A stretch of 64,000 bases of DNA from Chloroflexota bacterium (lineage in GTDB: Bacteria > Chloroflexota > UBA11872): positions 70,848 through 134,847 of the forward strand of contig JAJDZD010000072.1 in the NCBI GenBank assembly GCA_022824865.1, in the 5' to 3' direction. Position numbers and translations under genes: made by a program. Below are positions 7,002-62,698 of the stretch, in pieces. Numbering within the stretch: position 1 is the stretch's first letter; the number at the start of each line of letters is the position of its first letter. Under the pieces are notes generated by a model. It was not told where the DNA came from and ran no database searches. It saw only the letters and a list, made by a program, of their open reading frames with translations.

Positions 7002-7003
7002 GT

Positions 7004-27126: not shown

Positions 27127-27231
27127 TAGGTCTCTCCTTCGACCGCCGTGCAATCCACGCGCAGTATGTCCGAATATGGCAAACAAACCAGTCTTTGCCA
27201 AGTGATAGGTTTATATTTTTCGGCTACTGCC

Positions 27232-28232: not shown

Positions 28233-28420
28233 GTAGCTCCTTCCCCTGGCGAAGAGCATCTTGAACCTTTCCGAATAATCTTAGAAAAGATTCCAGTTTT
28301 TGGCAAGATCATGACAACTCGTGAATCTTTCGGGCCGACGTTGAGTTCCAGCGGCCAATCCTCCCTTCATTTCCTCGGCGACTACACTGTCCTCCCTACC
28401 CCCATGCCGAGGCCCCACCC

Positions 28421-32423: not shown

Positions 32424-32472
32424 CCGCCCCCTCCGCGTCCGCATCCTTGACTCTCGTAGGGGCGCGGTCTCT

Positions 32473-32603
32473 GAGCCTGTTTCATAAGTCGCTCAACCCG
32501 GCGAATTCATGGGTCGACAGGCTCGCCACGAATGGTCCTGAACCTGTAACGCTCGTCCAGAGCTTGTCGAAGGACGAGATTTGGCGACTTATGAAACACC
32601 CTC
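32473..32603. mobile_element. 131-bp MITE-like non-autonomous derivative of the IS at 37998-39667
   Basis: Left end GAGCCTGTTTCATAAG. Right end CTTATGAAACACCCTC, the degenerate inverted copy. Flanked by TCTCT on both sides. Inserted in the loop of a REP-like hairpin (gggcgcggtctct / ctctgacccgccc). Confidence 0.55.
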
Positions 32604-32829
32604 TCTCTGACCCGCCCGTCTTCCTCCACCCTTCTCCGCACTCCCTCTTTGCTCTCACCGCCCACTCCTCTCAGCTCACTCCTTCCTCACCCCCCGTTCG
32701 TGATGATCCTGTCCTGAGCCTGCCGAAGTGGCCGGCCCGGAGTCCTCGGAATGCCGTGTCGAACCATCCCTGTCATTCCGACGGTCCCCCGAGGAATCTC
32801 GACTTTTCCCCTCCCCCTCCTCCTCTTTC

Positions 32830-34284: not shown

Positions 34285-34365
34285 CACCCCTACTCCTTCC
34301 CCGTCCAACCCTCACGACTCCCCCCACCACAAACCCTATACCCCCATCCGGCCCCTCTTTCGTAC

Positions 34366-34386
34366 GGGCGGGTCTCTGACCCGCCC
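34366..34386. repeat. REP-like perfect hairpin GGGCGGGTC-TCT-GACCCGCCC (intact copy)
   Basis: 9-bp stem and 3-nt loop, followed by the conserved GTCTTCCGCTCGTGATC tail. The same unit recurs at 36169-36189 and, interrupted, at 32459-32616 and 37985-39680. Confidence 0.7.
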
Positions 34387-34642
34387 GTCTTCCGCTCGTG
34401 ATCTACTGGCCGCCCCCGCATATTTCGTACAGACCGCCTTTCGATCCCGCCCGTCGTCCTCTTCCTCTTCCTCGGCCACCCGCGAATCATTACCCTCTCC
34501 TGGGAGACCTTTGCAAAACGCCTCTCGACCTCGAAAATGTGTCCGCTCTTAATCCCTCTCCTGGGGGAGAGGGTTGGGGTGAGGGGTCTTCCGCGCAACC
34601 AACGATGGGTTACGCAAAGGTCTCATTAGGGAGAGATATGTC

Positions 34643-36127
34643 GTGAGCCACACGCCCGCAAACGCGCGCAGCCCCAACGTCCTCATCGTCCTCTGCGACC
34701 AGCTCCAACGCGACTTCGTCGGCGCCTACGGCCATCCCCTCGCCCACACCCCCAACATCGACCGCCTGGCTGCCCGCGGCGTCAAGCTCGCCCATGCCTA
34801 CGTGCCCAAGCCCCAGTGCGCCCCTGCCCGCGCCTCCATGTTCACCGGCCGCTATCCCCACCAGCACCAGCTCATGATGAACAACGCCGCCATCACCTGG
34901 CAGACCCCCGTCGGCCCCCTCGCCAACCGCCCCGACCTGCCCGAGACTGTCCCCTCCCTCGGCCAGGCCTTCCAGGCCGCCGGCTACCGACTCGGCTACA
35001 CCGGCCCCTGGCACATGGGCAACGACGAAACCCCCCAGCACGGCTTCACCGACTTCTGGCGCACCTATCGCTACTGGCAAGACGGCCGCGACTACTACGT
35101 CCAGTACCTGGAAAAGCTCGGCCTGGACCAACTATTTCACGACGAGCATCAGCGCGCCAACATGGCCCGCGCCGCCCGCACCGATCACGCCCAGCCGTCC
35201 ATGGCCACCGAGATCCCAACGGAGCACACCCGCACCGCCTGGGCCGTCAGGCAGACCCTGGAGTTCCTCGATAGCGCCGACACCCGCCCCTGGCTCTTCT
35301 GCTGCTCCATCAAAGACCCCCATCCCCCCGTCCTGCCGCCCCCCGAATTCGCCGACCTCGTCTCACCCGACGACGTCCGCTTCGTCCCCTCCTGGGTCGA
35401 CGACCTCTCGGACAAACCCGCCCTCCAGCGCGACTCCGCCAGCGTCCGCTGGACCTCCTACATGACCGACGACCAGTGGCGTCAATACATCGCCCACTAC
35501 CACGGCCTCAACGCCCACATCGACACCGAAGTCGGTCGGCTACTACAGGGCCTCGACCAGCGCGGCCTCACCGGCAACACCCTCGTCATCTTCCTCTCCG
35601 ACCACGGCGAAATGATGGGCTCCCACCACATGGCCCACAAAGGCCCCTACATGTACGAAGACGTCTACGCCATCCCCTTCATCGCCCACTGGCCCGGCCA
35701 TGTCGAAGGCGGCCGTACCCACCCCGACCTCTTCTCCACCGTCGACTTCACCCCCTCCCTCGGCGCCCTCTGTGGCGTGCCCGTCGATGCCGGCGCCGGC
35801 CTCGACCAGTCCGCCGTGCTCACCGATGGCGAGACGGGCCCCCGCGACGCCATCTTCGCCGAGTTCTACGGCCAGGGCTCCGAGGCCGAACGCGGCCTCA
35901 TGGCCATCAAATCCATCCGCACCCACGACTGGAAACTCAACATCTACCTCAACGACCGCTCCGAGCTCTACCACCTCGCCACCGACCCCCACGAACTCAC
36001 CAACCTCATCGACCACCCCGACCACCAGGCCACCAAACGCCACCTCGCCCACCGCATCCTCCACTGGCTCCGCCAAACCGACGACCCCCTAACCGAGGTC
36101 TTCGCCAACGAAGCCGTATCCACCTAG
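34643..36127 (+). CDS. Sulfatase (arylsulfatase family), distinct subfamily
   Basis: GTG start 34643 with a GGGAGAG RBS. PQCAPARASMFTGRYP (C-x-P-x-R), VLIVLCDQLQRD, DHGEMMGSHH. Confidence 0.85.
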   Translation: MSHTPANARSPNVLIVLCDQLQRDFVGAYGHPLAHTPNIDRLAARGVKLAHAYVPKPQCAPARASMFTGRYPHQHQLMMNNAAITWQTPVGPLANRPDLPETVPSLGQAFQAAGYRLGYTGPWHMGNDETPQHGFTDFWRTYRYWQDGRDYYVQYLEKLGLDQLFHDEHQRANMARAARTDHAQPSMATEIPTEHTRTAWAVRQTLEFLDSADTRPWLFCCSIKDPHPPVLPPPEFADLVSPDDVRFVPSWVDDLSDKPALQRDSASVRWTSYMTDDQWRQYIAHYHGLNAHIDTEVGRLLQGLDQRGLTGNTLVIFLSDHGEMMGSHHMAHKGPYMYEDVYAIPFIAHWPGHVEGGRTHPDLFSTVDFTPSLGALCGVPVDAGAGLDQSAVLTDGETGPRDAIFAEFYGQGSEAERGLMAIKSIRTHDWKLNIYLNDRSELYHLATDPHELTNLIDHPDHQATKRHLAHRILHWLRQTDDPLTEVFANEAVST

Positions 36128-36418
36128 CACGTCAAGTCAGAACCCCGCCCTGATTCCGTCTGTCGTAGGGGCGGGTCCTCGACCCGCCCGTCTTCCGCGC
36201 AACCACCAGCCCCTACCCATTCGTGGTGAGCCGGTCCGCTGCCGTGTGGCCCAGGCTGCGCCCAACCTGGGACCCTCCGCCGGGGACCACACCCCCGCAC
36301 TACCCAACCCACCCCGCCAATCCCCCTCCGTCATCCCGGCGTCCCCAGAGAGCCTGCCCTGAGCTTGCCGAAGAGCCTGCCCTGAGCCTGTCGAAGGGGG
36401 ATCCAGTCTTCCTCCCCT

Positions 36419-37876
36419 CTAACTCCTCTTCCCTCTCCCCTCTCCCTTTCCGCCCGGAACAAACATCCCATGCGGCTGCCCAACAACCAGGCCACCGTCC
36501 CGGCTAAACCCCTCCGGCCGATCCGCCAGCTCCTCCGCTAACCGCCCCCGCCACGGACCAAGATCGGTGTTTGGTGCCAGATCCCGCTCCTCATTCGGAT
36601 CCTCCACCACGTCAAACAAATGCTCCTCGCCCGTCTGGCTGAACCAGATGTACTTGTGCCGCTCATTCACGATCCAGTGATTCCCGTCCGCCTCCCGGTA
36701 CTGCCCCGCGTGCTCCCCGTGCAGCACGTCGCGCCACTCCGGTGATTCCCCACGCATCCACGGCAGCACGCTGCGACCCGTCACCGATTCCGGAATCTCA
36801 CAGCCCGCCGCATCCAGCAGCGTCGGCATCACGTCCTGCAGACCCACCGGCGCCGCCACCTCCACCTGGCTGGGGAATCCCATCGACCGCGGCGCCCGCG
36901 CCAGGAACGGCACCCGAACCGACGCCTCGTACGGCCACGTCTTTGCGAATAAGTGGTGATCGCCCAGCATCTCCCCGTGATCCGACACAAACATGATGAA
37001 CGTGTCATACAGCAAGCCCTTATCCCGCATGTACTGGAACAACCGGTTCAGCTGCATGTCCACGTGATTCACCAGCCCGTAATAGCCCGCCCGGCAGTGG
37101 TGCATCGGCGCCGGGTCCAGGTGCAGTCGACGGCTCCATCGCTCGGTGTGCTCGGAAAGCTCCGGATCCATCCCGCGCCGCGGCCCCGGGAACTCCGGCA
37201 CCCAGTCGCCAATCACCGGCTCCGGCAGGTCCATGCGCTCATACCGGTCGAAAAAGAACGCCGGCGGCGTAAACGGCGGATGCGGATCCATGAACGAGAC
37301 GTTCAGGAAGAACGGCGCCGTCGGATCGCGCCTCTCAAGGAAGTCGATTGCTCGCGACACCGTCCAGAACGTCTGCGTTTTCTCCTCCGGCAGATGCGTC
37401 GGACGTCCGATCCATCCGTTCGAGGGCGCCCCATGGGCCATCGCCCAGCGGTGCGGCGGCGCCTCGCCCCGCAGCCACGTCAGGTAATCGTTGTCCAGGG
37501 TGCGCGAGCTGTTCGCCAGGTCCATCGCCTCAAACCCAAAGCGCCGCCGCGTCGGTTGCAGGTCCAGCTTGCCGCTCATGTGTGTTTCATAGCCCACGTC
37601 GCGCAACTCGCCTGCCACCGTCGCCGCCGGATCCCATTCCGGGTGCGAGATCATCCCCGCCATCCCGTTCGCCGACGGCGCCTGCCCCGACATCAGCACC
37701 CGGCGCGCCGGAGCACACGACGGATACTCCGTGTACCCCCGCCGGAAATGCGTCCCCGAAGCCCCAATCCAATCCATCGCCGGCGTCTCCAGCACCGCAT
37801 GCCCATCCAACCCCAGCGCATCCCCCCGCTGCTGATCCGTCACAATCAACAAGACATTCGGCTGCCCCTCACCCAT
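36419..37876 (-). CDS. Sulfatase, copy 2 (paralog of 32830-34284)
   Basis: Start ATG 37876 (MGEGQPNVLLIVTDQQRGD). SCAPARRVLMSGQ motif. The flanking non-coding sequence is also duplicated. Confidence 0.8.
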   Translation of the reverse strand: MGEGQPNVLLIVTDQQRGDALGLDGHAVLETPAMDWIGASGTHFRRGYTEYPSCAPARRVLMSGQAPSANGMAGMISHPEWDPAATVAGELRDVGYETHMSGKLDLQPTRRRFGFEAMDLANSSRTLDNDYLTWLRGEAPPHRWAMAHGAPSNGWIGRPTHLPEEKTQTFWTVSRAIDFLERRDPTAPFFLNVSFMDPHPPFTPPAFFFDRYERMDLPEPVIGDWVPEFPGPRRGMDPELSEHTERWSRRLHLDPAPMHHCRAGYYGLVNHVDMQLNRLFQYMRDKGLLYDTFIMFVSDHGEMLGDHHLFAKTWPYEASVRVPFLARAPRSMGFPSQVEVAAPVGLQDVMPTLLDAAGCEIPESVTGRSVLPWMRGESPEWRDVLHGEHAGQYREADGNHWIVNERHKYIWFSQTGEEHLFDVVEDPNEERDLAPNTDLGPWRGRLAEELADRPEGFSRDGGLVVGQPHGMFVPGGKGEGRGKRS

Positions 37877-37997
37877 CACCCCTACTCCTTCCCCATCCAA
37901 CCCTCGCCAATCCCCCACCACAAACCCTATACCCCCATCCGTTCGTGGTGAGCCCTGTCGAACCACCCGGCCCCTATCTTCGTAGGGGCGGGTCTCT

Positions 37998-39667
37998 GAG
38001 CCTGTTTCATAAAGTGGGTGGTGTTGCGTGACGGCGCCGCCGGCCAGCGGGCCGGCGTGGGTGGAGGTGAGGGGGTATGCCGCATCGACCGATGAGCCGC
38101 GAGCAGCAATGGCTGCTGCCTCCGAGCCTGGACGAGCTGGTGCCGGCCGATCATCCGGCCCGCTTCGTGGCCGAGTTCGTCGATGCCCTCGACGGCGGCG
38201 CCTGGGCTGCCATGGGCATCGACCTCGCCGGGGATCCCCTGGGCGCGCCGGCCTACCACCCGCGGGCGCTGCTGAGTGTCTGGGTGTACGGCTTCATGAC
38301 CGGGGTCCGGTCGAGTCGGAAGTTGGAGGCGGCCTGCCGGGAGCAACTGCCGTACCTGTGGCTGACGGGGTGCCAGACGCCGGATCACATCACCTTGTGG
38401 CGGTTCTACGCCGTCCATCGAGCCGGGATGCGGCAGCTGTTCACGCGCACGGTCCGGATGGCGCTGCGGCTGCAGCTGGTGGCGTTGGCGGTGCAGGCCG
38501 TGGACGGCACCAAAGTCGACGCCAACGCCAGCGGGGCCCGGACCTACGATTCGGCGGGGCTGCGCCGGCTGCTGGACCGGGTGGAGGGCGCGATCGACGA
38601 CCTGGAAGCGCAGCACGAAGCGGGCGACGAGCCGCGGCCAGCCCGGCTGCCGGCGGCCTTGGCCACCCGGCGGCGGTTACGCACGCAGGTGCGGACGGCC
38701 CTCGCGACGCTGGACCAGCCCACGTCGCCCACGCGGATCAATCTGACCGATGCGGACGCGCCGCTGATGAAGACGCGGCAGGGGGTGCGGCCGGCCTACA
38801 ACGCCCAGGCGATGGTCGCGCCGGTGGCCCGGGGGGCCGCGGGCGGCGGCCGCCTGATCACCGCGGTCGCGGTGGTGGATGACCCGGCCGATGCGGCGCA
38901 GTTGCCGCCCATGCTGGCGCAGGCCGAGGCCGCGACCGGTACGCCAGCGGACCTGACGGTGGCCGATGCGGGCTATCACTCGGGGGCGGCGCTGGCGGCC
39001 TGTGCGCGCCGCGGCCACCGCGTGGCCATGCCGGAGGCGCAGGCGCGGGCCCTGCAGCAGCCGTATCACAAGGACCGCTTCAGCTACGAGGCGGCGCGCG
39101 ACCGCTATCGCTGTCCGGCCGGGCAGTGGCTGCGCTTCACGCGCACGAAGACCACGCAGGGCACCGCCATGCGGCTCTACCGGGCCTCCGGGGCCGTCTG
39201 CCGGGCCTGTCCGGCCTTCGGAATCTGTACGACCGACGGGCGGCATGGACGCGGCTTGGAAATCGGGCCGCACGACGCCCTGCTACGGCGGCATCGGGCC
39301 TGGATGGCCACGCGCGCGGCCCAGCACTGGGTAGCGCAGCGCCCGGCCCTCGTCGAACCCGTCTTCGGCATCATCAAAGACCAGCAAGGGGCTCGCCGCT
39401 TCCTGCTGCGCGGGCTGGCCAATGTCAAGGCCGAGTGGGCCCTGCTCGCCACCGCCTTCAACCTGCGCACGCTCTGGCGGCTCTGGCGGGCGCCACCCAC
39501 CGAACCCGCCGGGTGGGATGCGGCGATGACCACCGCTGGCGCGCCCGCCTAGCCCCCGGTGACGCCTCAGCGCGTCGGCGCAGCCTCGTCACATCGCCGG
39601 AAGCCACCCGTCCAGGCCGCACGATGGCGTGAGCCTGCCCCCTGAATACGCCTAATGAAACAGGCTC
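37998..39667 (+). mobile_element. IS element (1670 bp), IS5/IS1182-family, with 13-bp terminal inverted repeats and 4-bp CTCT target-site duplication
   Basis: TIR GAGCCTGTTTCAT at 37998-38010 and its reverse complement ATGAAACAGGCTC at 39655-39667. CTCT at 37994-37997 and 39668-39671. Removing the element plus one CTCT regenerates the REP hairpin GGGCGGGTCTCTGACCCGCCC. Confidence 0.7.
38077..39552 (+). CDS. DDE transposase, IS5/IS1182 family (DUF772-type N-terminus)
   Basis: 491 aa. N-terminal LPPSLDELVPADHPARFV and WLTGCQTPDHITLWRF. DDE region with DAGYHS. C-terminal LLRGLANVKAEWALLATAFNLRTL is typical of this family. Confidence 0.8.
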   Translation: MPHRPMSREQQWLLPPSLDELVPADHPARFVAEFVDALDGGAWAAMGIDLAGDPLGAPAYHPRALLSVWVYGFMTGVRSSRKLEAACREQLPYLWLTGCQTPDHITLWRFYAVHRAGMRQLFTRTVRMALRLQLVALAVQAVDGTKVDANASGARTYDSAGLRRLLDRVEGAIDDLEAQHEAGDEPRPARLPAALATRRRLRTQVRTALATLDQPTSPTRINLTDADAPLMKTRQGVRPAYNAQAMVAPVARGAAGGGRLITAVAVVDDPADAAQLPPMLAQAEAATGTPADLTVADAGYHSGAALAACARRGHRVAMPEAQARALQQPYHKDRFSYEAARDRYRCPAGQWLRFTRTKTTQGTAMRLYRASGAVCRACPAFGICTTDGRHGRGLEIGPHDALLRRHRAWMATRAAQHWVAQRPALVEPVFGIIKDQQGARRFLLRGLANVKAEWALLATAFNLRTLWRLWRAPPTEPAGWDAAMTTAGAPA

Positions 39668-40001
39668 CTCTGACCCGCCCGTCTTCCGCTCGTGATCGAC
39701 GGGCCGCCCCCGCCTCTTTCGCAGGCGCGTCATCTCCGACCCGCCCGTCTTCCTCTTCCTCCGCCATCCCGGCGTCTCCGGCCGGGACCCAGCAGCACCC
39801 AACAACCCGAACGCATCCAAGCCATCCCTGGCAACCCACCCAGACCAAATGCTCCCAACCGTCCCCTCCGCCTCCCACTACTCACTGCTCTCCGCTCACT
39901 CCCTCCCCACCCGCCATCGCCCTGTCCCACGCCGCCGTCATCGGCGACGGTGACCGCCGACGCTACAATCGGATCACCGGACGGGTCACTGGAGAGCTTC
40001 A

Positions 40002-40298
40002 ATGGATGTACGCGAGGCTGCACGCACAGCCAAGACGTATATCGCCAATGTCTTTGCCGACGAGGCTATTGATGAAGTCGGACTCGAGGAAGTCGACTTT
40101 GACGACCATTCGAATCTCTGGAAGATAACCATCAGCTTCCTGCGTCCCAGGGGCGAAATGGACAGATTCCAGGCTGCGGCATCAGGCTATCCGGCCGGTA
40201 CCCCCACAATGCGTCGTTCCTTCAAGGTTGTGAACATCGACGACGGGTCCGGCAGCGTCGTTTCCGTCAAGCACCGGGTGGTGGAAGGCGCCGACTGA
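40002..40298 (+). CDS. Small acidic hypothetical protein (98 aa), upstream partner of a PIN-like gene
   Basis: GGAGAG RBS. Highly acidic (ADEAIDEVGLEEVDFDDHS). Ends 4 nt before the next ORF. No known family recognised. Confidence 0.5.
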   Translation: MDVREAARTAKTYIANVFADEAIDEVGLEEVDFDDHSNLWKITISFLRPRGEMDRFQAAASGYPAGTPTMRRSFKVVNIDDGSGSVVSVKHRVVEGAD

Positions 40299-40302
40299 CT
40301 CG

Positions 40303-40761
40303 TTGCCCGCCGCATGCTATCTCGACGCCAATCTGCTCGTGCTCCTCGTTGTCGGCGCCACGGATCAAGCCCTGGTACGTAGGCATCGTCGCCTGCAAGC
40401 ATTCGACCCTGATGACTATGAGCTTCTGGTCGAATTGCTCGGGAATTACCCGCAAGTACTGGTAACGCCAAATACACTCACCGAAACGTCCAATCTGCTA
40501 AGTCAACATGCCGAACCCCAGCGATCCAGGTTCTTTGAAACGTTCCGATCACTAATCGAAATCAACAAGGAAATAGTCGTGGAAAGCCGGCAAGCCTCAG
40601 GAAACGCATCTTTCAAGCGCCTGGGACTGACCGATGCCGCGCTTCTTGAGGTAGTCACCGCGGACACCCCGCTGATCACGGTGGACCTGGACTTATACGT
40701 GGCAGCCTTAGCAAAGTCGCCAGGTGCAGCCATAAACTTCACGCATCTCCAGCACCTCTAG
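40303..40761 (+). CDS. PIN-like domain protein
   Basis: CYLDANLLVLL (beta1 Asp), then LTETSN, LTDAALLEV and ITVDLDLYVAA acidic positions, consistent with a divergent PIN fold. Confidence 0.5.
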   Translation: MPAACYLDANLLVLLVVGATDQALVRRHRRLQAFDPDDYELLVELLGNYPQVLVTPNTLTETSNLLSQHAEPQRSRFFETFRSLIEINKEIVVESRQASGNASFKRLGLTDAALLEVVTADTPLITVDLDLYVAALAKSPGAAINFTHLQHL

Positions 40762-40987
40762 TCGTCCCCCTCTTGCGTAGGTGCCGCGTTTCCAACCGGC
40801 CTCTTCCGCGCAACCACGCCCGAAGTACGCAGAGGTCTCCCGTTACGACACCGTCCCTGCCCCCGCAGTCCTCTTCTCCCCTCCGCCTCTTTTCTCAACG
40901 CTCACTACTCTCAGCTCACTCCTTCCTCCGGCGTCCATCCTCAACCCGCCCCAAGTAAGCTAGCCCGACCCCCACGCCACCTCTCGC

Positions 40988-43936
40988 ATGCCCCGCACCG
41001 CCGAACACACCGTCAACGTCGAACTCGCCCGCCTCCTGCGCACTAGGCACCCGCGTTGGCGCAACGGCATCGGCGTTGAACAGACCGGCGTGCTGGCCGA
41101 CGCCCCCGCCCAGCGCCCCGACATCCTCATCCAGCATCCCGGCGGCCTGCCCGTCGTCATCGAGACCGAGTACCGCCCGGCTCGCGAAGTTGAACAGGAC
41201 GCCAGCAGCCGCCTCGGCGCGGTCGTCGCGGCCACCGGCGAAGCAATAGAGCAAGCCGTCGCCCTCCGCGTGCCCGTGGAACTCCGCGGCGTCAACCAGG
41301 CCCAACTGCCCCAACGCGTCGCCGAGGCCGCCTTCGACTACTGCGTCTTCACCGAGGGTGCCGAAGGCCCCGACCGCTGGCCCGCCAGCGGCTGGCTTAC
41401 CGGCGGCGTCGACGACCTCGCCGGCTTCATTGAACACACCGCCCTATCGGAGCGCCGCATCGCCCGCGGGACCTTAATTCTTGAAGTCGGCGTTCGTCAG
41501 GCCGCGGGTCGTCTTGAGGCCATGCTGCTAGAACCGGAAGGGATATTGGGCCGACGAGCGGCCGTCCTGCACCAGCAGCCCGGAGAGCAAACCGAGCGCA
41601 TGGCCATGGCGATCGTGGCCAACGCCATGACCTTTCACGCCACGCTCGTCGCAGCCAAGCTTGATGTCCGCTCGTTCGACGATCTGCGCCGGGATTCCTC
41701 GCTCAACCGTCTGAGCCGATCCATAGTCCTCGGGGAATGGCGCCGAATCCTCAGGGAGATCAACTACTGGCCGATCTTCCGGATTGCCGATGAGCTCATG
41801 TCGCCGGTCTCGGCCCGCGAAGCCTCGTCAATCCTCGAGCACTTGGCCAAAGTCGCCGACGAGCTGCACCAAATCGGCACGTCCACCACCCACGACCTCT
41901 CCGGCCAGATGTTCGGCCGTCTGATTACGGACCGGAAGTTCCTGGCCACCTTCTACACGCTTCCTGCCTCCGCCTCGCTACTGGCCGAACTGGCGGCGAC
42001 TCGTCTCGAAGTCGATTGGGCGGATTCCGTAGCTTTCACCGACCTGCGGATTGCCGATCTGGCCTGCGGCACCGGTGCCCTGCTGGCCTCGGCTTACCGC
42101 GCGGTGGCGTCCCGCCATCGCCGCGCCGGCGGCGACGATGCTCCGCTCCACGCAACCATGATGGAGCACTCACTCATCGGTGCCGACATCATGCCGGCCG
42201 CCTCCCACCTCACCGCCTCCACGCTCTCCAGCGCGCATCCCGGTGTGCCGTTTGATCGTACCCGCATACACACCATGCCCTACGGCGACCCAGAGCCTGA
42301 CGATCCCAGCGGGCGCGGTACCGCCATCGGCTCCCTGGATCTGATCCTCAGCGACGCCCAGCCGTCCCTCTTCGGTACCGGCCAGCACGCCGTCCGGGGC
42401 CGCGACCCGTCCCTAAGCGCCGAATCCTCGCCGGCGCATGTGCGGCAGGGCGACGAACTTCATGTGCCCCAGGGCTCGGTTGATCTCATGATCATGAATC
42501 CACCGTTCACCAGCCCGACAAATCACGCAGCGCAAAATAATGTCCCGATACCTTCGTTTGCTGGATTCGCCACCGGCGAGGACGAACAGCGAAGGATGTC
42601 GGAGGTACTCCGAGAGATTCGGAGGTGCCTGGAGCATCCTGTAGGTCACGGCAACGCCGGCCTCGCTTCCAACTTCATTGACCTCGCACACGCGAAGACA
42701 AAGCCGGGCGGGGTGCTCGCCCTTGTCTTGCCGCTGGCGGTGGTCTCAGGAAGCGCATGGTCATCGGCGCGGCGGATGCTGGCCCGCGACTACAGCGATC
42801 TGATAATCGTCACGATCGCGGCCGTCGGTGACACTGATCGTGCGTTCTCGTCGGACACCAGCATCGGCGAGGCGCTCGTTGTCGCAACACGGCGGGATGG
42901 CCCGGTCCACACAGACGAATCTGCGGCCGAAACGCTCTATGTGAGTCTCGGCAGGCGACCGCAGAGTCTGGCTGAGGCATCAGAGATCGCCCGCGCGGCT
43001 CGTTGTCTGCCAGATTCAGGTGGCGGGCTCTTTCAAATCGGTGACGAGACAGTCGGCTGTTTCATCCGCGCCACACTTGCTGACAGCGGATGCGCTGCGG
43101 TGCGTGAGCCGGGTGTCGCACAAGCTGCGCTTGCGGTGAGAGAGGGCTCGTTGCGCCTGCCTCGTATGCGCGAGGCGCACTCTTTGCCAATAGCTCTGCT
43201 GGCTGAACTTGGCCACCGCGGGCTGGTTCACCGCGACATCAACGGTAGAAACTCTGACGGTTCTCCCCGTGGCCCCTTCGATGTCATGCCGCGACTCGGC
43301 GCGGCGTCGGCGTACCCAATGCTCTGGCAACACGGCGCTAAACGTGAGCGGCGGCTCCGCGTAGAACCGGATACGGAGGGCCGCGTTCGGCAAGACTGTG
43401 AAACCAAAGCCATTGACGTATGGGAAACAGCAACTCGGCTCCATTTGACCCTGGACTTCCGCCTCAACTCGCAAAGCTTGGCCGTCTGCCTCACCCCCGA
43501 ACCTTCGATCGGAGGCCGAGCCTGGCCTAACTTTCGGCTATTGAACGCCGCAGGCGAAGAGGCGGTCGCGCTCTGGGCGAACAGCACCTTGGGACTGATG
43601 AGCTTTTGGTTGACTGGCGGGCGCCAGCAGCAGGGTCGCTCGATCATGACCATTTCTCAGTTGCCCGAACTGCCAACACTCGACGTACGCCAACTCAGCA
43701 TGGAACAGATCGAGCGATCCCACCGCATCTTCGCCGACTTCCTCGACTATGAATTCCTCCCCGCCAACGAGGCCTACCACGACCCTGTCCGCCAGGCACT
43801 CGACCAGGCCGTCCTCATCGACCTCCTCGGCCTCCCCGAATCCATCCTCGATCCCCTCGCCCTCCTCCGCCTTCAATGGTGCGCCGAACCCACCGTCCAC
43901 GGCGGCAAATCCACTAAGCCCCCTGAGCTACCGTAG
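40988..43936 (+). CDS. Large N6-adenine DNA methyltransferase fused to an HSDR_N-like nuclease-fold N-terminal domain (Type IIG/IIL-like single-chain restriction-modification candidate, 982 aa)
   Basis: N-terminal RPDILIQHPGGLPVVIETEY resembles the HSDR_N PD-(D/E)xK-fold domain, but the Lys is replaced. Motif I LRIADLACGTGALL. Motif IV VDLMIMNPPFTSPT (NPPF). I-then-IV order indicates gamma class. About 450 aa of C-terminal domain could be a target-recognition domain. Confidence 0.65.
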   Translation: MPRTAEHTVNVELARLLRTRHPRWRNGIGVEQTGVLADAPAQRPDILIQHPGGLPVVIETEYRPAREVEQDASSRLGAVVAATGEAIEQAVALRVPVELRGVNQAQLPQRVAEAAFDYCVFTEGAEGPDRWPASGWLTGGVDDLAGFIEHTALSERRIARGTLILEVGVRQAAGRLEAMLLEPEGILGRRAAVLHQQPGEQTERMAMAIVANAMTFHATLVAAKLDVRSFDDLRRDSSLNRLSRSIVLGEWRRILREINYWPIFRIADELMSPVSAREASSILEHLAKVADELHQIGTSTTHDLSGQMFGRLITDRKFLATFYTLPASASLLAELAATRLEVDWADSVAFTDLRIADLACGTGALLASAYRAVASRHRRAGGDDAPLHATMMEHSLIGADIMPAASHLTASTLSSAHPGVPFDRTRIHTMPYGDPEPDDPSGRGTAIGSLDLILSDAQPSLFGTGQHAVRGRDPSLSAESSPAHVRQGDELHVPQGSVDLMIMNPPFTSPTNHAAQNNVPIPSFAGFATGEDEQRRMSEVLREIRRCLEHPVGHGNAGLASNFIDLAHAKTKPGGVLALVLPLAVVSGSAWSSARRMLARDYSDLIIVTIAAVGDTDRAFSSDTSIGEALVVATRRDGPVHTDESAAETLYVSLGRRPQSLAEASEIARAARCLPDSGGGLFQIGDETVGCFIRATLADSGCAAVREPGVAQAALAVREGSLRLPRMREAHSLPIALLAELGHRGLVHRDINGRNSDGSPRGPFDVMPRLGAASAYPMLWQHGAKRERRLRVEPDTEGRVRQDCETKAIDVWETATRLHLTLDFRLNSQSLAVCLTPEPSIGGRAWPNFRLLNAAGEEAVALWANSTLGLMSFWLTGGRQQQGRSIMTISQLPELPTLDVRQLSMEQIERSHRIFADFLDYEFLPANEAYHDPVRQALDQAVLIDLLGLPESILDPLALLRLQWCAEPTVHGGKSTKPPELP

Positions 43937-44084
43937 ATTTTTCCGTCGCGCACTCAATTCCAGCAACGAAACGGAAGAGAACGATGGTGATCACTTGACA
44001 CCAGGCACGAATCCTAGCGACTCATCTATTTCGATACAGGACCTTCATGAAGATGAACTAGAGCATGTAATCAGAGTTTTTTCA

Positions 44085-45029
44085 ATGCGTATCGGATTGG
44101 ATCGGATCATCAAGAGCGCATCCGTCTCAAAGATTGTTCCAATAGACGATTTACTCGAAGCACTATCGTTGGATGAATGGCCAGCTGAAAGCGCAACACT
44201 TGACGAGCTTATATGGTGCTCGGAGCCACTCACACATGAGGACTTCAAGCGCTTACGTGAATATTCTGTGCACTGGCAGAAGACTAGTCAAGACTGGCGA
44301 CTTTGGATAGCTCGTGAGCCTTCGTTGCCGGCAGACGATAGAATGTTCTTTGACAAGCGTCGAATAATGATTAGTATATTCACCGTATATCGGATCTATA
44401 TAGATGCAGCGCATCAGAAACAATATCGATCCGCCCTGAGGCTTTGGCACCTAAAGAGATTGGCACCCACGATCCTTTTTACTGTAATTGTTCTAATTGT
44501 TATAGCCCTCAACAGCTGGCAGGCATCCGAGACGCTTACGCTGGATTTCTGGAAGACTATTCTGTTTCAGTACGTGGCATTTGGCGCGGTAATCTACACT
44601 TCACACTACATGACAGGAAAGCTCGGCTTTATCCACGGAGTGCTAACACTAACTGTCGTTTGGTTGTTCCCTTTCCACTTTTTCTTATTTGGAACGATTG
44701 AGGCTCTTGCAATCGACGTGCCACAATGGCAAACCGAACTGATGTCTTTAGGACTTAGCGTGCTAGTTGGGTTATTGATGGCGGAATTAAGGCACCCTTT
44801 AAAGAGCGTCAGTCAAATGCATTCAGAAGGCGGATGGGCGATAGTTTACAAAAATGTGTTGGCGACTCCGGCACTCGTGATGGCGCCGACCTACGGAGCC
44901 ATTAAGATAGTTGAATACTTGATCAGGGTATCGGTTCACAACAATCAGTTGGCAATTGTAGCAGTTCCTATCGGACTAATTGTCATCGTGGCGAGTGCGG
45001 AATTGATACGACGTGAGCTAAGTCGTTAG
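44085..45029 (+). CDS. Hypothetical membrane protein (N-terminal soluble domain plus 5 TM helices) encoded in an AT-rich insert
   Basis: First in-frame ATG after the upstream stop is 44085. GC content of 43937-45330 drops to roughly 45-48% against about 67% background. Five hydrophobic helices in the C-terminal 200 aa. Confidence 0.5.
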   Translation: MRIGLDRIIKSASVSKIVPIDDLLEALSLDEWPAESATLDELIWCSEPLTHEDFKRLREYSVHWQKTSQDWRLWIAREPSLPADDRMFFDKRRIMISIFTVYRIYIDAAHQKQYRSALRLWHLKRLAPTILFTVIVLIVIALNSWQASETLTLDFWKTILFQYVAFGAVIYTSHYMTGKLGFIHGVLTLTVVWLFPFHFFLFGTIEALAIDVPQWQTELMSLGLSVLVGLLMAELRHPLKSVSQMHSEGGWAIVYKNVLATPALVMAPTYGAIKIVEYLIRVSVHNNQLAIVAVPIGLIVIVASAELIRRELSR

Positions 45030-45289
45030 AAGGTGGGCTGAGCAATACAATGGATAGGAGGCTATAGCGACACGGATTGATAGACCGTGCTTTCAACGAC
45101 AGAATCGATGGAGATATGGCATTCGGACCGAAGCGTGAGCGCACAACGACTAACACTTGAGAAGATTGCAAACCACTCGAAGCGCAGAATGGATGAAATC
45201 GTTATATCCGTTGACTCTCGATCGATTCATAAGTCGAAGCGAGCGGTGCTCCCGTCGCTGAAGACTGGTTTCGTTCGTCGATTACGTGA

Positions 45290-45649
45290 TCAGCCTTCGA
45301 CTATCGAGTCAGGATGGCGGCAAGGAACCCTATAAATTCCAAGGACATTCAAGACGCTGACCAGCAGTAGGCTGACTATCCAGGTCTTGAGATTCTCAAC
45401 ATCGGCCTTTGTCGCGCACTGCCGAAACAATTCACCGCGGAGCCGATCAAACTCCTCGCGTAACTCCGCCCGCGTCAACGGCGGATCCCCGGCGTTCAAC
45501 TCGGCCGTTCGGACGCTTCCCCTCCTAAGTGGCGCAATCACCGCGCCCGCTGAAGGATTCCCAAGCTGCCCGAACAATCCTCTCGCTCGATCACACCCGC
45601 CCGACCCCGCCGGGACCTCGCCTCCACGCCGGCATCCCCGGCGCCGCAC
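45290..45649 (-). CDS. Small coiled-coil protein with C-terminal TM anchor, paralog A (start uncertain)
   Basis: Shares GNPSAGAVIAPLR...PLTRAELREEFDRLRGELFR.CATKAD...LK.W followed by a hydrophobic helix with 46706-46981. Its partner starts at the position aligned to Leu here, so a non-ATG start or the upstream ATG at 45649 are both possible. Confidence 0.45.
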   Translation of the reverse strand: MRRRGCRRGGEVPAGSGGCDRARGLFGQLGNPSAGAVIAPLRRGSVRTAELNAGDPPLTRAELREEFDRLRGELFRQCATKADVENLKTWIVSLLLVSVLNVLGIYRVPCRHPDSIVEG

Positions 45650-45704
45650 CGCCCCATCTATTCGCTTGATCAGTCAGGTCCGATAGACTGAATGACTCAC
45701 TTCG

Positions 45705-45980
45705 ATGCGAGTCCGTGAAATGGCCACGCTCCAGGTCGGCGTGCCTCCAAATGACCCCGAAGTCATGCTTGCCGAGATGCAACGCGAGCTGGATGACGTT
45801 CGTTGGATCGAGGACAACATGGCCGCGCTCGTCGAGGAGTACGGCATCAAGTTTGTCGCGGTCCGTCACCGCAAGGTTATTGGCTCGTCACACCGACTCA
45901 CCCTGCTTCTTGAAGACCTCAGGGAGCGCGACATTGCCCCAGGATCGGCCTCCATCGAAGTGCTCTACCGCCAGGAATAG
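45705..45980 (+). CDS. Small hypothetical protein (91 aa), upstream partner of a retropepsin-like protease
   Basis: Ends 6 nt before the protease ORF. No family recognised. Confidence 0.45.
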   Translation: MRVREMATLQVGVPPNDPEVMLAEMQRELDDVRWIEDNMAALVEEYGIKFVAVRHRKVIGSSHRLTLLLEDLRERDIAPGSASIEVLYRQE

Positions 45981-45986
45981 CCGACC

Positions 45987-46463
45987 GTGGCAATCCTTGG
46001 CACGGCAAGGCCTCCGAGCCCGGGGGCAAGTCCCGCGCCGTACATCCCTACCTGGGTCTACGCGCGCTACCCGGGAGCCGACAGGCGGCAGCACGTGACG
46101 GTTTCCTTCATGGTCGACACTGGAGCCGACCGAACCGTTCTGTCCCTTCGCAAGGCACGCGATCTCATAGGCGCCGATTGGAACGCTGTCTGTCAGACAT
46201 CCGTCACCCTCGAGGGCATTGGTGGTGCTCAGCCCTATTGGGAAGTTCCCATGCGGATCTGGTTCAGGGACGCCTCGGTCCAACGCTTTGTCTCTGTCGA
46301 GTCGCAAGTCCTGGTTCCGTTCTATTCAGAAGTTCAGGACTTGGCCGAACGCTCGAGTGAGCGCCGAGGTCGCGAACCGATCTCTTTACTGGGTCGCGAC
46401 GTCTTCGGCCACATGCGTCTCGAATTCGACCTTTCCCAGCCTGAGCAAGTAGTTCTGCGCTAG
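45987..46463 (+). CDS. Retropepsin-like (clan AA) aspartic protease, small single-domain bacterial/archaeal type
   Basis: FMVDTGADRTVLS contains the D-T-G-A catalytic signature of retroviral-type aspartic proteases. Size (158 aa) matches the small AF_0612-like family. LLGRDVF near the C-terminus is like the dimerisation strand. Confidence 0.55.
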   Translation: MAILGTARPPSPGASPAPYIPTWVYARYPGADRRQHVTVSFMVDTGADRTVLSLRKARDLIGADWNAVCQTSVTLEGIGGAQPYWEVPMRIWFRDASVQRFVSVESQVLVPFYSEVQDLAERSSERRGREPISLLGRDVFGHMRLEFDLSQPEQVVLR

Positions 46464-46705
46464 CGGCGGCCGTCAGTCGCCTCGGTGTCGCCGAGCCGAG
46501 GGCGAACTGCAAACGCGTGCTCAATTCGGATTACAAGACTCCCGATTAGGTCCCCGAAGCCATCGCGCACTAGACTATGACGATTGCGACTGGCTAGGTC
46601 TTGAAGGCGTTGCGGCCTGTAGCGCGATACTAACGGGCGATAAGCCTGTCCGCTTCGCGGTATCGGAAGTTCGCGAACTCCGCAATCATCGCCTGCCGCC
46701 GCGAC

Positions 46706-46981
46706 CTAGCGAGTCAGTAGAGTTGCGATTACCCCGGCCGTTCCAAGGAGATTAAGCACAACGACCAATAAGACACCAACCAGCCACGCTTTGAGATCCG
46801 CAAAGTCCGCCTTCGTCGCGCAGTGTCGAAACAGCTCACCACGGAGCCGATCAAACTCCTCACGCAACTCCGCCCGCGTCAGCGGGGCAGCCGAGGTCTT
46901 CGAGTCTGCCACTCGGACGTTTCCCTTCCTAAGTGGCGCAATCACCGCGCCCGCTGAAGGATTCCCATGCCGCCCGAACAA
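46706..46981 (-). CDS. Small coiled-coil protein with C-terminal TM anchor, paralog B
   Basis: MFGRHGNPSAGAVIAPLRKGNV...PLTRAELREEFDRLRGELFRHCATKADFADLKAWLVGVLLVVVLNLLG. Same architecture as 45290-45649. Confidence 0.5.
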   Translation of the reverse strand: MFGRHGNPSAGAVIAPLRKGNVRVADSKTSAAPLTRAELREEFDRLRGELFRHCATKADFADLKAWLVGVLLVVVLNLLGTAGVIATLLTR

Positions 46982-47299
46982 TCCTCTCGACCAATGCTAC
47001 CCAAACAACCCCGCCAAAGTTCCGGACGACCCCACCAGCGGTTCACCTTGATCGCAGCTGCGGCCGCTCTCAATCCCTTGTACCTTCCGCCGGCCTTGGA
47101 TTGACCAAGGCCACAGAGAGCGGGCCGGGACAGACCGAAAATCCCCGGGTCCGGTGAGACCGGAGGAGAGCAGGGTCGTCCCGGCCCTGACGCTGCCCCA
47201 GAGCCTGCAACCGCAAGGCTTAGTGCGGGGTCAACGTCCCTCGAGCCTACCCAATCGCCCCACCACCCCAAATCCCCGTCGGCATCCATACGCCCAGGC

Positions 47300-47400
47300 G
47301 CCACCCGCACCTCACCCCCAGCCCCCGACCCCATCCCATCCCTTTCCCTTCCCTTCCCCTCCCCCTCTCACTCCTCTGCCCTCTCCCCTCTACCCTTCTT
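47300..47400. repeat. Pyrimidine-rich direct repeat, copy A (about 100 bp)
   Basis: CCACCCGCACCTCACCCCCAGCCCCCGACCCCATCCCATCCCTTTCCCTTCCCTTCCCCTCCCCCTCTCACTCCTCTGCCCTCTCCCCTCT. Repeats at 47583-47685 with more than 90% identity. Confidence 0.7.
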
Positions 47401-47582
47401 CAAGTCCCCCACGTGCCACCGCCACCCTTGCCGGGACTGCCGGCACTCGCAGCACGGCCTGCACTGACTGCGTTGCCAGCAACGCTGGCAGCCCCCTGGT
47501 CGGCGACAGTCCGCCCACCACCCACCCGAAGGCCTTGCGGCCGGCGGGGTCCAAGTCTTCCCAAGCCCGCCAAACCTTCAAC

Positions 47583-47685
47583 CGCACGCGCACCTCGCCC
47601 CCAGCCCCCGACCCCATCCCATCCCTTTCCCTTCCCTTCCCATCCCCCTCTCACTTCTCTCCCCTCTCCCCTCTCCCCTTCCTCC
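47583..47685. repeat. Pyrimidine-rich direct repeat, copy B
   Basis: Second copy 283 bp downstream of copy A. The top strand is more than 90% C/T. Confidence 0.7.
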
Positions 47686-47801
47686 CCGGCACTTGAACCA
47701 GCCCATCGTTGACGCTTCAATTCACCCCGAGCCCCGATTGCCCGTTACCCCGGGGAGCTAACCCATTGCCCCGTCACCCCGGCCAACCTCTTGCCGAGGC
47801 C

Positions 47802-48428
47802 ATGGACGCCACTAGCGAGATAGGCCCAAGACTCTGGCTCTGGTGGACCCTTGCCACCGTCGCTGGCTGGGCCGTGGGCGAGTTCTTCTTCCGGGCGTCT
47901 GGTGAGTTTGTATGGGCTGCCATCCTGTTCAGGGGCGCCCACGTGCTGGGCGTCGGCGGGGCCGTGCTGCAAGCCCTTGTGCTTCGCCGGCATCTGCCGC
48001 GAGCCGCCTGGTGGGTTCTGGCAACCGGCGTTGCCGCCGTCCTGGGTGGTATCGCGGTGCTCGCCGCTATTGTCGACGTGCCCTACCTCACGCGAGGATT
48101 CGAAGTGCCGTCCATCGCGCTCATCCTGTTGTCCGTCCTTGCAAGCGGACTTCTCGTCGGCGCTTTCCAGTGGCTGATCTTGCGTCGGCACGTCGCTCGG
48201 GCTGGCTGGTGGGTTCCCGCCAGCGGCCTCAGCCTCACCCTCGGCTGGCTCGTCGGCGCCGTCGTGGTCGAAATCGCACTCGACCCCCGGTACCACCCCG
48301 CCGCAGTCGATCTAATCGCCGGCCTCGTGAGCGCCACCATCTACGGCGCCCTCACCGGCCATACCCTGTCTCGCCTTCTCCAATCCAGGAAGCCCAACCC
48401 CCACAACACCCAGCCCGTCCCGCACTGA
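47802..48428 (+). CDS. Hypothetical membrane protein with internal two-fold repeat (LRRH.xRAxWWV)
   Basis: Start chosen at MDATSEIGPRLWLWW. Two homologous halves each contain LxLRRHxxRAxWWV followed by TM helices. Confidence 0.45.
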   Translation: MDATSEIGPRLWLWWTLATVAGWAVGEFFFRASGEFVWAAILFRGAHVLGVGGAVLQALVLRRHLPRAAWWVLATGVAAVLGGIAVLAAIVDVPYLTRGFEVPSIALILLSVLASGLLVGAFQWLILRRHVARAGWWVPASGLSLTLGWLVGAVVVEIALDPRYHPAAVDLIAGLVSATIYGALTGHTLSRLLQSRKPNPHNTQPVPH

Positions 48429-48990
48429 CACCCCGTTCACGCCATCAGCGTCTCGATCGCTCAGCCCAACCCACCCGTCACGCCTAACCAACAGCCGACA
48501 AACCCCACACGCCGGCACAGCCCTCCACGCCCAGCGAGTTCACCGCACCCCCGGCACCCGTCGGTCACCCTGACACTTGCCCCTCGTCCTCCGAGAGTGT
48601 ACACTACTGGTACACCGTTCGCAACCTCACCCGGAGTCCCCATTGTCCACGCCACCAATCCGCCACCCACCATCGCCGGCCCCCGAAACAGCCGTCCGCG
48701 CCCAGTCGTCCAGCCCCCGGACCGCCATCAGCGCAGCGATTCGCCTGCTCTGGATCCTCCTCACCCTCACACCCCTCTCGCTCACCTGGATCCCCGCCAC
48801 TCTGGGTTTTCTCCCACCCGCGCTGCGCCCATCCCCCGACGCCGCCACTCCGCTCCCATCCCCGTCAAACCCACCCATCCACCCACCCCTACCCCACCGC
48901 CCAACCCCCGCATTGGCCTCGCCTCCCCGCACCAAATCGCCGCCCCCGAACGCCCTCCAGACCCCGCCAAAACACACCCCGCGCCGCCTC

Positions 48991-49014
48991 AAGAGTTTTT
49001 TGGAAAAAACTCTT
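48991..49014. promoter_or_regulatory. Perfect AT-rich palindrome AAGAGTTTTTT-gg-AAAAAACTCTT, 210 bp upstream of the isomerase/oxidoreductase/aminotransferase operon
   Basis: 11-bp inverted repeat with a 2-bp spacer, embedded in 65-70% GC pyrimidine-rich DNA. Candidate operator. It is a poor intrinsic terminator because the stem is AT-only. Confidence 0.4.
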
Positions 49015-49225
49015 ATGCGCGCGAGGCCCCCCATTTCGACCCCTCCAGCCACCCGCGTCAGCACCCACCCGCGGCTGCGGCCGCCGTTTCCCGTTCCTCC
49101 GTCCCCGTCTTCTCTCACTGCTCACTGCTCTCAGCTCACTCCTTCCGCCCCACCCGGCCTCGGTTGACATCCCACCCCACCCCGGCACGATTGACGCAGC
49201 CCGCATCCCGGAGCGCAACACCTCC

Positions 49226-62554: not shown

Positions 62555-62698
62555 GCCAGGCCGAGCGTCCTGAGACGCTTTGGCTGGTGATCCCGCTCTT
62601 GTCCAGAGTCCTTTGCACGTCAAGGAACAGGGGCTGGAGCGTGTCTTACGCCGCATGGCAGCGCTTCCCGCCCCTCGCCCGTTGAGGGACTCCCCGGG

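Follow-up and report, generated by a model that had tools for sequence, protein, structure and literature searches.

Single-chain restriction-modification (RM) enzymes of types IIG and IIL, such as BpuSI, MmeI and DrdV, carry a nuclease-like domain, a helical linker, a gamma-class methyltransferase and a recognition domain, in this order, on one chain of approximately 900–1000 residues and have no partner genes. In type II toxin-antitoxin modules of the VapBC kind, a PIN-fold toxin with four conserved acidic residues is paired with a small protein encoded directly upstream. Bacterial retropepsin-like aspartic proteases of clan AA include Rickettsia APRc, Pseudomonas RimB and the TIGR02281 family with its DTGA motif (PMC4140852, PMC11957791). 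In defence islands and hot spots, including those at prophage ends, unrelated genes of defence types are clustered and the content varies between close relatives. Here, a 64-kb stretch of DNA from a Chloroflexota bacterium (contig JAJDZD010000072.1, positions 70,848 to 134,847; hereafter the window) is described, in which genes comparable to all of these, designated A to I, lie close together. Coordinates are those of the window unless a related locus (L number) is named.

The region at 38–49 kb of the window is probably a horizontally assembled, strain-variable accessory island, i.e. a mosaic of self-contained modules and not one machine. The modules are a PIN-domain pair (A-B), a single-chain RM-like enzyme (C), a membrane protein encoded in a segment of low guanine plus cytosine (GC) content (D), and a protease pair (F-G) bracketed by two small membrane-anchored paralogs (E and H). 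Every module is also found apart from the others. In most of the 79 C loci from a genome collection, C stands by itself, A-B is missing from every C locus fetched, F-G stands alone in L095, and D is found without a C-family gene in L092, L094, L096 and L097. Hence, the modules do not form one system, and the proposal of an earlier note on this sequence, that they may be an undescribed combination acting together, is not upheld. The components listed in that note do exist at or near where it placed them, with small corrections to the starts of D, E and F.

The region is accessory and variable, given that different cargo is found 3′ of C in relatives and that the block occupies a different chromosomal position in L093; a housekeeping role was rejected for the same variation in content and position. 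Relatives carry C-F-G-H, C-D, or C with other low-GC cargo, and the variability that the earlier note proposed to check by comparing synteny was observed. The island resembles defence islands in its clustering of unrelated defence-type genes, in the differences in content between close relatives, in the insertion sequence and repeats found along its edges, and in the terminase gene that delimits the cargo of relatives. Unlike typical defence islands, it includes only C (RM-like) and A-B (toxin-antitoxin-like) as genes resembling known defence classes, and no integrase gene or full prophage is present.

The single-chain enzyme encoded by C

C (40988–43936, + strand) encodes a protein of 982 residues, for which motifs, an AlphaFold model and Foldseek comparisons indicate an endonuclease-like domain (residues ~1–150), a helical linker, a gamma-class N6-adenine methyltransferase (~300–630) and a C-terminus resembling a recognition domain. 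The model, obtained from an alignment of 60 sequences, has a predicted local distance difference test score (pLDDT) of 84.6 and a predicted template-modelling score (pTM) of 0.88. RM.BpuSI, a type IIG enzyme, is the best Foldseek match (E 1.7e-16), followed by PglX/BrxX, DrdV, CamA and LlaBIII; MmeI was also matched. Judged by their length, the structural alignments extend beyond the methyltransferase core, covering 599 residues of PglX, 487 of MmeI and 450 of CamA. The whole-chain match to BpuSI has a template-modelling score (TM-score) of 0.34–0.38, and identity to the solved enzymes is 8–14%. The fusion of a nuclease-like domain to an adenine methyltransferase, read from the sequence at the outset, was recovered in this way.

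The conserved methyltransferase motifs are DLACGTG (residues 357–363) and MNPPF (503–507), and the position of motif I before motif IV corresponds to the gamma order. In the model, the N-terminal unit has an alpha-beta-beta-beta-alpha-beta arrangement (helix 6–18, strands 28–30, 46–48 and 56–62, helix 68–73, and strand 89–95). P44-D45 precedes the second strand and E59-T60-E61 lies on the third, giving the motif PD-x13-ExE. No variation at these residues occurs among 14 sequences, one of which is a 39%-identical copy from the betaproteobacterial plasmid pNRS527-2 of Nitrosospira. The corresponding motif of BpuSI is given as PD-x15-ExK in PMC3185434. Residues 631–780 of C are among the least conserved, with 53–60% identity in relatives that are 76–89% identical elsewhere, and this stretch appears to behave as expected for a recognition domain.

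C shares with type IIG and IIL enzymes the chain length, the order of domains and the absence of separate R, M or S partner genes, no neighbour being conserved across the 79 genome loci from many phyla. With such an architecture, the C-terminal region would recognise the DNA site, the methyltransferase would place N6-methyladenine on host sites, and the N-terminal PD-x13-ExE domain would cut unmodified incoming DNA. C thus appears to be a self-sufficient single-chain RM-type enzyme with a putative nuclease activity, belonging to a family that is not covered by curated models.

The family is large. A total of 2401 homologues was found at E ≤ 1e-3, almost all of full length (~980 residues) and none with a Pfam domain; all full-length homologues listed retain the N-terminal domain. 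The scan of the genome collection gave 555 confirmed matches. The closest relatives in this collection are metagenome-assembled genomes (MAGs) of Chloroflexota. Relatives with 52–56% identity belong to Latescibacterota, Alpha- and Gammaproteobacteria, Longimicrobiales (Gemmatimonadota), Acidimicrobiia (Actinomycetota), Spirochaetales, Synechococcus, Rhodothermales and Bryobacterales, so that the family at this level spans MAGs of at least eight phyla (L005–L083), many with sponge-related names. Several genomes carry multiple copies (OZ242010.1, OZ251446.1 and OZ251497.1, and four contigs of one Spirochaetales MAG). The broad range of phyla together with the multiple copies per genome suggests wide horizontal spread of C inside one habitat. 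C loci occur in many phyla, and the neighbours that they share reflect clade-level synteny only.

Several observations weigh against the assignment of C as an RM enzyme. Unlike type IIG and IIL enzymes, C remains below significance on the curated type IIG, Pfam and NCBIfam models. Among PADLOC profiles, MTase_II (1e-10) and mad2 (3e-10) were matched, and REase_MTase_IIG gave just 0.0086–0.057; by contrast, the unrelated type IIG enzyme encoded in L096 scores E 5e-143 on the curated type IIG profile. No Pfam cut-off is reached (N6_Mtase, E 0.088), there is no match to the Eco57I or MmeI models, and the isolated N-terminal domain gave no match above chance in sequence and profile searches of the PDB. 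Where PD-(D/E)xK nucleases have the catalytic lysine, C has glutamate. Partial plasmid relatives are annotated as plain N-6 DNA methylases.

The weak profile matches and the replacement of lysine by glutamate would fit an orphan or anti-restriction adenine methyltransferase of mobile elements, whose N-terminal domain is inactive or serves DNA binding only. The island would then have no restriction activity, and C would shield mobile DNA or act as an epigenetic regulator. Plasmid-borne relatives are in keeping with this explanation: the homologue on pNRS527-2 directly follows type IV secretion system transfer genes, and a shorter relative on pUSP4 of Aminobacter, which lacks the N-terminal domain and is annotated 'N-6 DNA methylase', adjoins a gene for a zincin-like metallopeptidase that was read here as ArdC-like. 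However, the D...ExE arrangement is a working variant of the nuclease motif in BamHI, and the N-terminal domain is kept in the full-length homologues listed. The invariance of P44-D45 and E59-T60-E61 from Chloroflexota to the 39%-identical plasmid copy points to selection on a catalytic site. An orphan methyltransferase is accordingly considered rather unlikely, and a single-chain RM-type enzyme is preferred.

Assignment of C as the methyltransferase of a BREX, DISARM or MADS system (PglX, DrmMI or MAD2) was rejected, as no PglZ/BrxC/BrxL, DrmA-C or MAD1-8 is encoded nearby in the window or in relatives. On the NCBIfam MAD2 model, C reaches 14.7 bits against a cut-off of 720.

Terminase joints and cargo turnover downstream of C

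In L009, L010 and L093, a gene for a 436-residue terminase large subunit (TerL) converges on C. The L009 and L093 products are 83% identical, and TerL was matched in the PDB to 4znj (E 4e-8). In L002, L005, L006, L009 and L010, the cargo ends in TerL fragments that comprise the last 65–145 codons. In the window, only a vestige of 18 codons from the TerL 3′ end is present (46651–46704, − strand), directly past the stop codon of H. Its translation, SRRQAMIAEFANFRYREA, aligns to residues 372–389 of the L009 TerL with 61% identity (E 0.001 in a search of 3.9 kb), and the vestige is placed just where L009 and L002 have their longer TerL 3′ fragments.

Counting from C, the order in L009 is C, F, G, TerL 3′ fragment, H and TerL (terminase and H-like region 14077–16174). 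L002 has C, F and G followed by two successive TerL 3′ fragments, each with an H gene, and then a third fragment (12091–13536); C-F-G-H is also found in L003. L005 and L006 have C, D and a TerL 3′ fragment (14311–14700 and 14148–14342, respectively). The arrangement in L010 is C, other low-GC open reading frames (ORFs), a TerL 3′ fragment (13969–14121) and, farther away, TerL (20616–21923). L093 has C, a gene for a 198-residue transmembrane protein, an H-like gene, D and TerL (7149–8453). In the window, the order is C, D, E, F, G, the vestige and H. Compared with L002, 1.7 kb including D and E has been gained between C and F. L093 is a close relative, with a 96% identical glutamine synthetase; its C-D-TerL block lies beside the glutamine synthetase gene, which in the window is 25 kb from C. 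Upstream of C, the loci L002, L003, L008 and L009 have an FAD-oxidoreductase (DAO) gene where the window has A-B and the insertion sequence.

These layouts show that cargo is turned over between repeated joints. The presence of a lone TerL gene together with repeated 3′ fragments that alternate with H-like and cargo genes suggests a site of cassette accretion or exchange, with no integrase in view. The ancestral layout in this clade would be C facing a convergent terminase gene, with cargo (D, F-G or other low-GC genes) accumulating or being swapped between their 3′ ends. The window would then be a rearranged derivative that gained D and a duplicated H-like copy and kept just the 18-codon terminase vestige.

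Other low-GC ORFs can fill the slot after C. In L010, the segment 12892–13793 encodes proteins of 140 and 128 residues, the latter with a transmembrane segment and a coiled coil.

H (46706–46981, − strand) encodes a basic protein of 91 residues with a helical region and a C-terminal transmembrane anchor (residues 67–85). E (45290–45649, − strand) encodes an H-like paralog whose true start is likely near 45577, giving ~96 residues, and which likewise has one transmembrane segment at the C-terminus. The two genes share a repeat of 275 nt with 78% identity (45337–45611 versus 46741–47015) and bracket F-G, in agreement with the earlier description of a protease module between paralogous membrane genes. 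Residues 1–67 of H align to 45577–45377 in E. The last ~15 codons of E are replaced where the gene meets the low-GC segment, and E is therefore regarded as a truncated duplicate. No family was matched by E or H (for H, in scans of Pfam, NCBIfam, PADLOC and PHROG). Homologues of H with 49–64% identity adjoin TerL or its fragments in L002, L003, L009 and L093. E and H are small tail-anchored proteins; in relatives, their genes take turns with 3′ fragments of the terminase gene and mark where cargo genes are joined.

The same joints can be explained if the block is mainly a decayed prophage end, in which H and E are holin- or XhlA-like, G is a phage protease and C is a phage-borne methyltransferase, the genes being relics or serving phage functions and not host defence. 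In all six related genomes whose flanking sequence suffices (seven loci, namely L002/L003, L005, L006, L009, L010 and L093), the cargo is closed off distally by TerL or its 3′ fragments, with the vestige in the window; the L093 terminase gene has a precomputed Terminase_3C match, and H-like genes come directly after the terminase gene. On the other hand, no other phage structural genes were seen, and the L093 terminase gene is only 1.7 kb from that for glutamine synthetase. In all other phyla, C is solitary and unlinked to a terminase. None of A, B, D, E, F, G and H has a PHROG match, and D is absent from 50,697 phage genomes. A prophage remnant is thus an unlikely explanation for the block as a whole. 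It also overlaps the reading as an accessory island, as the ends of prophages are a common location of defence genes (Rousset et al., bioRxiv 10.1101/2021.01.21.427644).

The protease pair, the PIN pair and the membrane protein D

F and G form a pair on the + strand. F (45705–45980) encodes a small protein of 86–91 residues, its likely start being ATG 45720 (86 residues, as in homologues), and lies directly upstream of G (45987–46463), which encodes a retropepsin-like (clan AA) aspartic protease of 158 residues. G was matched to Asp_protease_2 (E 4.6e-5, 24.5 bits against a cut-off of 24.3) and RVP (E 1e-4, 23.0 bits against 20.7). The motifs DTGADRT (residues 44–50) and SLLGRDV (133–139) are invariant in 16 homologues. 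The G family comprises 18 clusters, all from close relatives, and a search with F and G joined gave homologues of G only.

F is found next to G in L002, L003 and L009 (78% identity) and in L095 (57%). In L095, the pair lies among housekeeping genes without C or H, and F-G-H as part of a C system was rejected for this reason. Three of the four F proteins scanned gave weak, sub-threshold matches to DUF5678 (E 0.03–0.19). Weak matches to component B of the PADLOC candidate PDC-M08 (PDC-M08B) were found in six of 16 members of the G family (best E 0.0044). However, the match of G of the window is not significant (E 0.041) and F matches nothing in PADLOC. The DUF5678 and PDC-M08B matches are leads only.

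As in the bacterial clan AA retropepsins, G has a single lobe of ~150 residues with DTGA and GRD motifs, and a homodimer is expected. Unlike those proteases, it has no signal peptide or membrane anchor and is always paired with an upstream protein of ~86 residues. F-G is thus likely an independent pair of a small protein and a dimeric retropepsin-like protease with intact DTGA and GRD motifs, and it would be built like a toxin-antitoxin or protease-substrate module.

A (40002–40298, + strand) encodes an acidic protein of 98 residues with an isoelectric point (pI) of 4.9, and is followed after 4 nt by B (40303–40761, + strand), which encodes a protein of 152 residues. The AlphaFold model of B has a pLDDT of 82, and all its top Foldseek matches in the PDB are PIN or VapC proteins (PAE0151, PAE2754, VapC20 and FitB; probability ~1.0, TM-score 0.5–0.68), as anticipated when the pair was first described as PIN-like. 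In the acidic tetrad, D8 and E61 are invariant and D111 and D128 are at least 90% conserved. A search with A and B joined gave 2123 proteins, and all 120 among the matches listed are B-like.

In each of the eight loci examined for B homologues, L084–L091, which are strain variants from one population, a gene for an A homologue (92–93 residues, 45–50% identity) is located 8 nt 5′ of the B homologue. The slot 3′ of the pair (pair and slot at ~3700–7200 in each locus) is occupied by PtuA and PtuB (Septu), PtuA alone, a Ppl-like gene, PDC-S39, PDC-S31 or unknown genes. As the downstream genes differ from locus to locus, A-B precedes a slot for defence cargo, and in L084–L091 the PIN pair clearly marks a hot spot for defence systems. 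In the window, this slot is occupied by C. The absence of A-B from all C loci fetched shows that A-B and C are not a functional unit.

Like VapBC, A-B consists of a small acidic protein encoded 4–8 nt 5′ of a protein with the PIN fold and four conserved acidic residues, and the pairing is conserved. B would be a VapC-like nuclease in a two-gene toxin-antitoxin-like pair, and the conserved tight pairing makes A its presumed antitoxin or regulator, which would neutralise B. Unlike in VapBC, A lacks a recognisable antitoxin or DNA-binding domain (AbrB, RHH, Phd/YefM or HTH) in Pfam, NCBIfam, PADLOC and PDB profile scans, and has no match in Pfam, NCBIfam, PADLOC, PHROG or the PDB; B lies under the Pfam PIN thresholds (sub-threshold matches were found in 11 of 45 B homologues), and its toxicity is putative. 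These features, together with a pI of B of 5.1, i.e. not basic, count against a VapBC assignment. Sequence and profile searches of the PDB with B gave chance-level matches only.

D (43995–45029, + strand, 47% GC) encodes a membrane protein of 344 residues and begins 58 nt after the stop codon of C. It lies in an inserted low-GC segment (43937–~45300), recognised from composition profiles, which starts at the base after the C stop codon, as was noticed on first inspection. GC of the segment is ~0.46, and 44–45 kb is the lowest-GC kilobase of the window. The segment is absent from L002 and L009, where F-G directly follow C, and the blastn break-points place 43914 at position 10933 and 45662 at position 11080 of L002. 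Alignment of homologues (328–356 residues) set the start of D at TTG 43995, ~30 codons 5′ of the ATG 44085 of the gene call, and not at ATG 43749. An N-terminal soluble domain of ~155 residues with conserved tryptophans is followed by 4–6 transmembrane helices. The multi-helix membrane protein proposed for the AT-rich insert is thus retained, with its start moved and its count of five helices widened.

An exhaustive HMMER search of 1.84 billion representatives gave 37 clusters for the D family at E ≤ 1e-3. D has no match in Pfam, PADLOC, PHROG or the PDB, where the searches stayed at chance level. D is the only truly novel piece of the island, a family without known relative. In every host examined, D homologues have 43–49% GC, compared with 56–69% for the flanks or the locus.

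In the window, L005 and L006, the gene immediately follows one of the C family; in L093, it comes 2 kb after one. In P0242, it follows a C 3′ end, which is read out of frame as an N-terminal extension. In L096, an unrelated MmeI/Eco57I-type IIG gene is overlapped at its end by a ParE gene, and the D homologue begins 20 nt past ParE and 279 nt downstream of the type IIG gene; the island around it also has TIR, PIN, HKD-Snf2 and GmrSD genes. D follows HNH_2, HigB and HTH/ImmA genes in L094, lies near SIR2_2 and an integrase in L092, beside DUF5677 in L097, and beside transposase debris in L101/L102. A single-chain RM gene is therefore next to or near D in six of ten contexts, several of which come from related genomes and are not independent, which lessens the weight of the association. 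No RM gene of any kind adjoins D in L092, L094 and L097.

In L093, the 198-residue transmembrane protein encoded after C (4292–4888) has a C-terminus, VALVELMRREIDR, that matches the C-terminal motif of the D family.

D would be a membrane protein of foreign, low-GC origin, and its co-transcription with C is probable. By genomic association alone, it may best be regarded as a membrane effector, with an accessory role in defence or of the abortive-infection type. An obligatory partnership of D with C was rejected, as only two of the 79 genome-collection C loci (L005 and L006) carry it. D proteins are 31–40% identical where the adjacent C proteins are 78–87% identical. As D is far less conserved than C and keeps its foreign GC, cassette exchange fits better than co-inheritance or co-evolution. 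A further, improbable proposal is that D and the 198-residue protein of L093 represent a new class of low-GC membrane proteins, captured as cassettes 3′ of single-chain RM genes and acting as second-line effectors or modulators of the RM enzyme, and that the alternating repeats of TerL 3′ ends and H mark a kind of site, so far undescribed, at which cassettes accrete or are exchanged although the stretches examined contain no integrase gene.

It is unlikely that C and D, possibly with F-G-H, make up one integrated defence system in which the RM-like enzyme senses or marks DNA and the membrane protein executes abortive infection: D follows C closely on the same strand, D-family and C-family genes adjoin or are no more than 2 kb apart in five contexts, a D-family gene lies 3′ of the unrelated type IIG gene in L096 (with ParE between), and C-F-G-H adjacency is kept in L002, L003 and L009, but the rarity of D among C loci, its occurrence without RM genes, the solitary F-G pair, and the divergence and foreign composition of D indicate swapping of cargo.

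Borders, genomic setting and significance of the island

The left edge of the island is formed by an insertion sequence (IS) of the IS1182 family (~37998–39668, + strand; transposase ORF 38077–39552). The transposase was matched to NCBIfam transpos_IS1182 (E 3.8e-106) and to Pfam DDE_Tnp_1_6 and DUF772, and the terminal inverted repeat GAGCCTGTTTCAT of 13 nt is present at both ends. The element is a single copy within the window. It interrupts a repeat similar to repetitive extragenic palindromic (REP) elements, both flanks matching uninterrupted copies at 34344–34406 and 32454–32624, between the sulfatase genes. Since these intact copies remain nearby, a recent insertion is suggested.

A C/T-rich REP-like repeat (40869–40931, + strand) separates A-B from C, and further copies, in repeat families D2–D5, are located at 39859–39911, 47302–47404, 47585–47687 and 49089–49151. 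The 26-mer CTCACTGCTCTCAGCTCACTCCTTCC of the repeat has four matches against none expected. Such repeats separate modules, fill 46990–47700 and 48430–49200, and are also found in intergenic DNA of relatives. Between the two latter blocks lies I (47709–48428, + strand), an ORF for a basic protein of 239 residues with several predicted transmembrane segments. No homologue was found in any fetched locus, the only match being a weak one to Pfam 5TM-5TMR_LYT (E 0.043), and the membership of I in the island is uncertain. The earlier note had placed an IS copy and repeats on the left, as found, and on the right 2 kb of repeats rich in pyrimidines; the right-hand repeats are present and form two blocks around I. 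Extreme strand asymmetry (GC skew −0.4 to −0.5, with a C/T- or C/A-rich + strand) was observed in these two blocks and at 14000–20500 in L010; the stretches are built of degenerate C/T-rich repeats and reach 6.5 kb in L010.

GC of the whole 64-kb window is 0.65, in a high-GC Chloroflexota genome. At third codon positions, GC is 0.50–0.77 in genes A to I versus 0.80–0.91 in the flanking metabolic genes. The left flank consists of three consecutive sulfatase genes (32.8–38 kb; Sulfatase and SGSH_C domains, 32830–37966), and the right flank includes xylose-isomerase-like, GFO/IDH, aminotransferase and riboflavin genes. The Rfam scan of 36–50 kb gave no match, promoter and terminator scans were no better than chance, and the tRNA scan gave no gene at the island borders; the sole tRNA of the window is a selenocysteine tRNA (tRNA-SeC, anticodon TCA) at 62697–62793 (− strand).

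GC skew is steadily negative over ~33 kb (17000–50000) and near zero elsewhere in the window. Outside the island, tandemly spaced genes (23784–24572 and 25263–26051) encode a pair of 262-residue paralogs that share 70% identity, carry signal peptides and belong to no Pfam family; a low-GC relative lies directly upstream of C in L005 (8277–9080). SpoVT/AbrB (MazE_antitoxin) domains are encoded in two ORFs 13 kb to the left of the island (26551–27201 and 27615–28259, both − strand), which may be further toxin-antitoxin-like modules.

PADLOC called no complete defence system in the window, although elsewhere, homologues of A-B and D have recognised systems around them; the baseline comparison recommended earlier is thus negative for the window and positive for the genomes with those homologues. 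That the genes are of kinds found in defence islands is supported by the PIN fold, the single-chain RM-like enzyme and the proximity of A-B homologues to Septu, Ppl-like, PDC-S39 and PDC-S31 genes elsewhere. The statement that only the methyltransferase belongs to a family that can be named still holds for A, D and E/H, and no longer for B (PIN/VapC) and G (retropepsin-like). The island adds to known kinds a family that is like type IIG but lacks annotation, a PIN pair whose partner is unfamiliar and a pair built around a retropepsin; D stands apart as an orphan family of membrane proteins.

The island as a whole fits established ideas on defence islands and on the enrichment of RM and toxin-antitoxin genes in sponge symbionts (PMC5649159, PMC5099237). 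Taxon names such as Spongiisociaceae and Poriferihabitaceae among the genomes with C relatives point to sponge microbiomes, and the window genome is, by MAG names only, presumed to be of the kind found in sponge-associated MAGs.

Given the genes found around it, the rare orphan family of D is reasonable to include in experimental defence screens, and the A-B pair is a practical marker for slots of defence cargo. The C family is a large, unannotated RM-type group of more than 2400 clusters that is missed by present defence annotators. Hence, the defence content of these symbionts is under-counted, and the C family would supply new recognition specificities.

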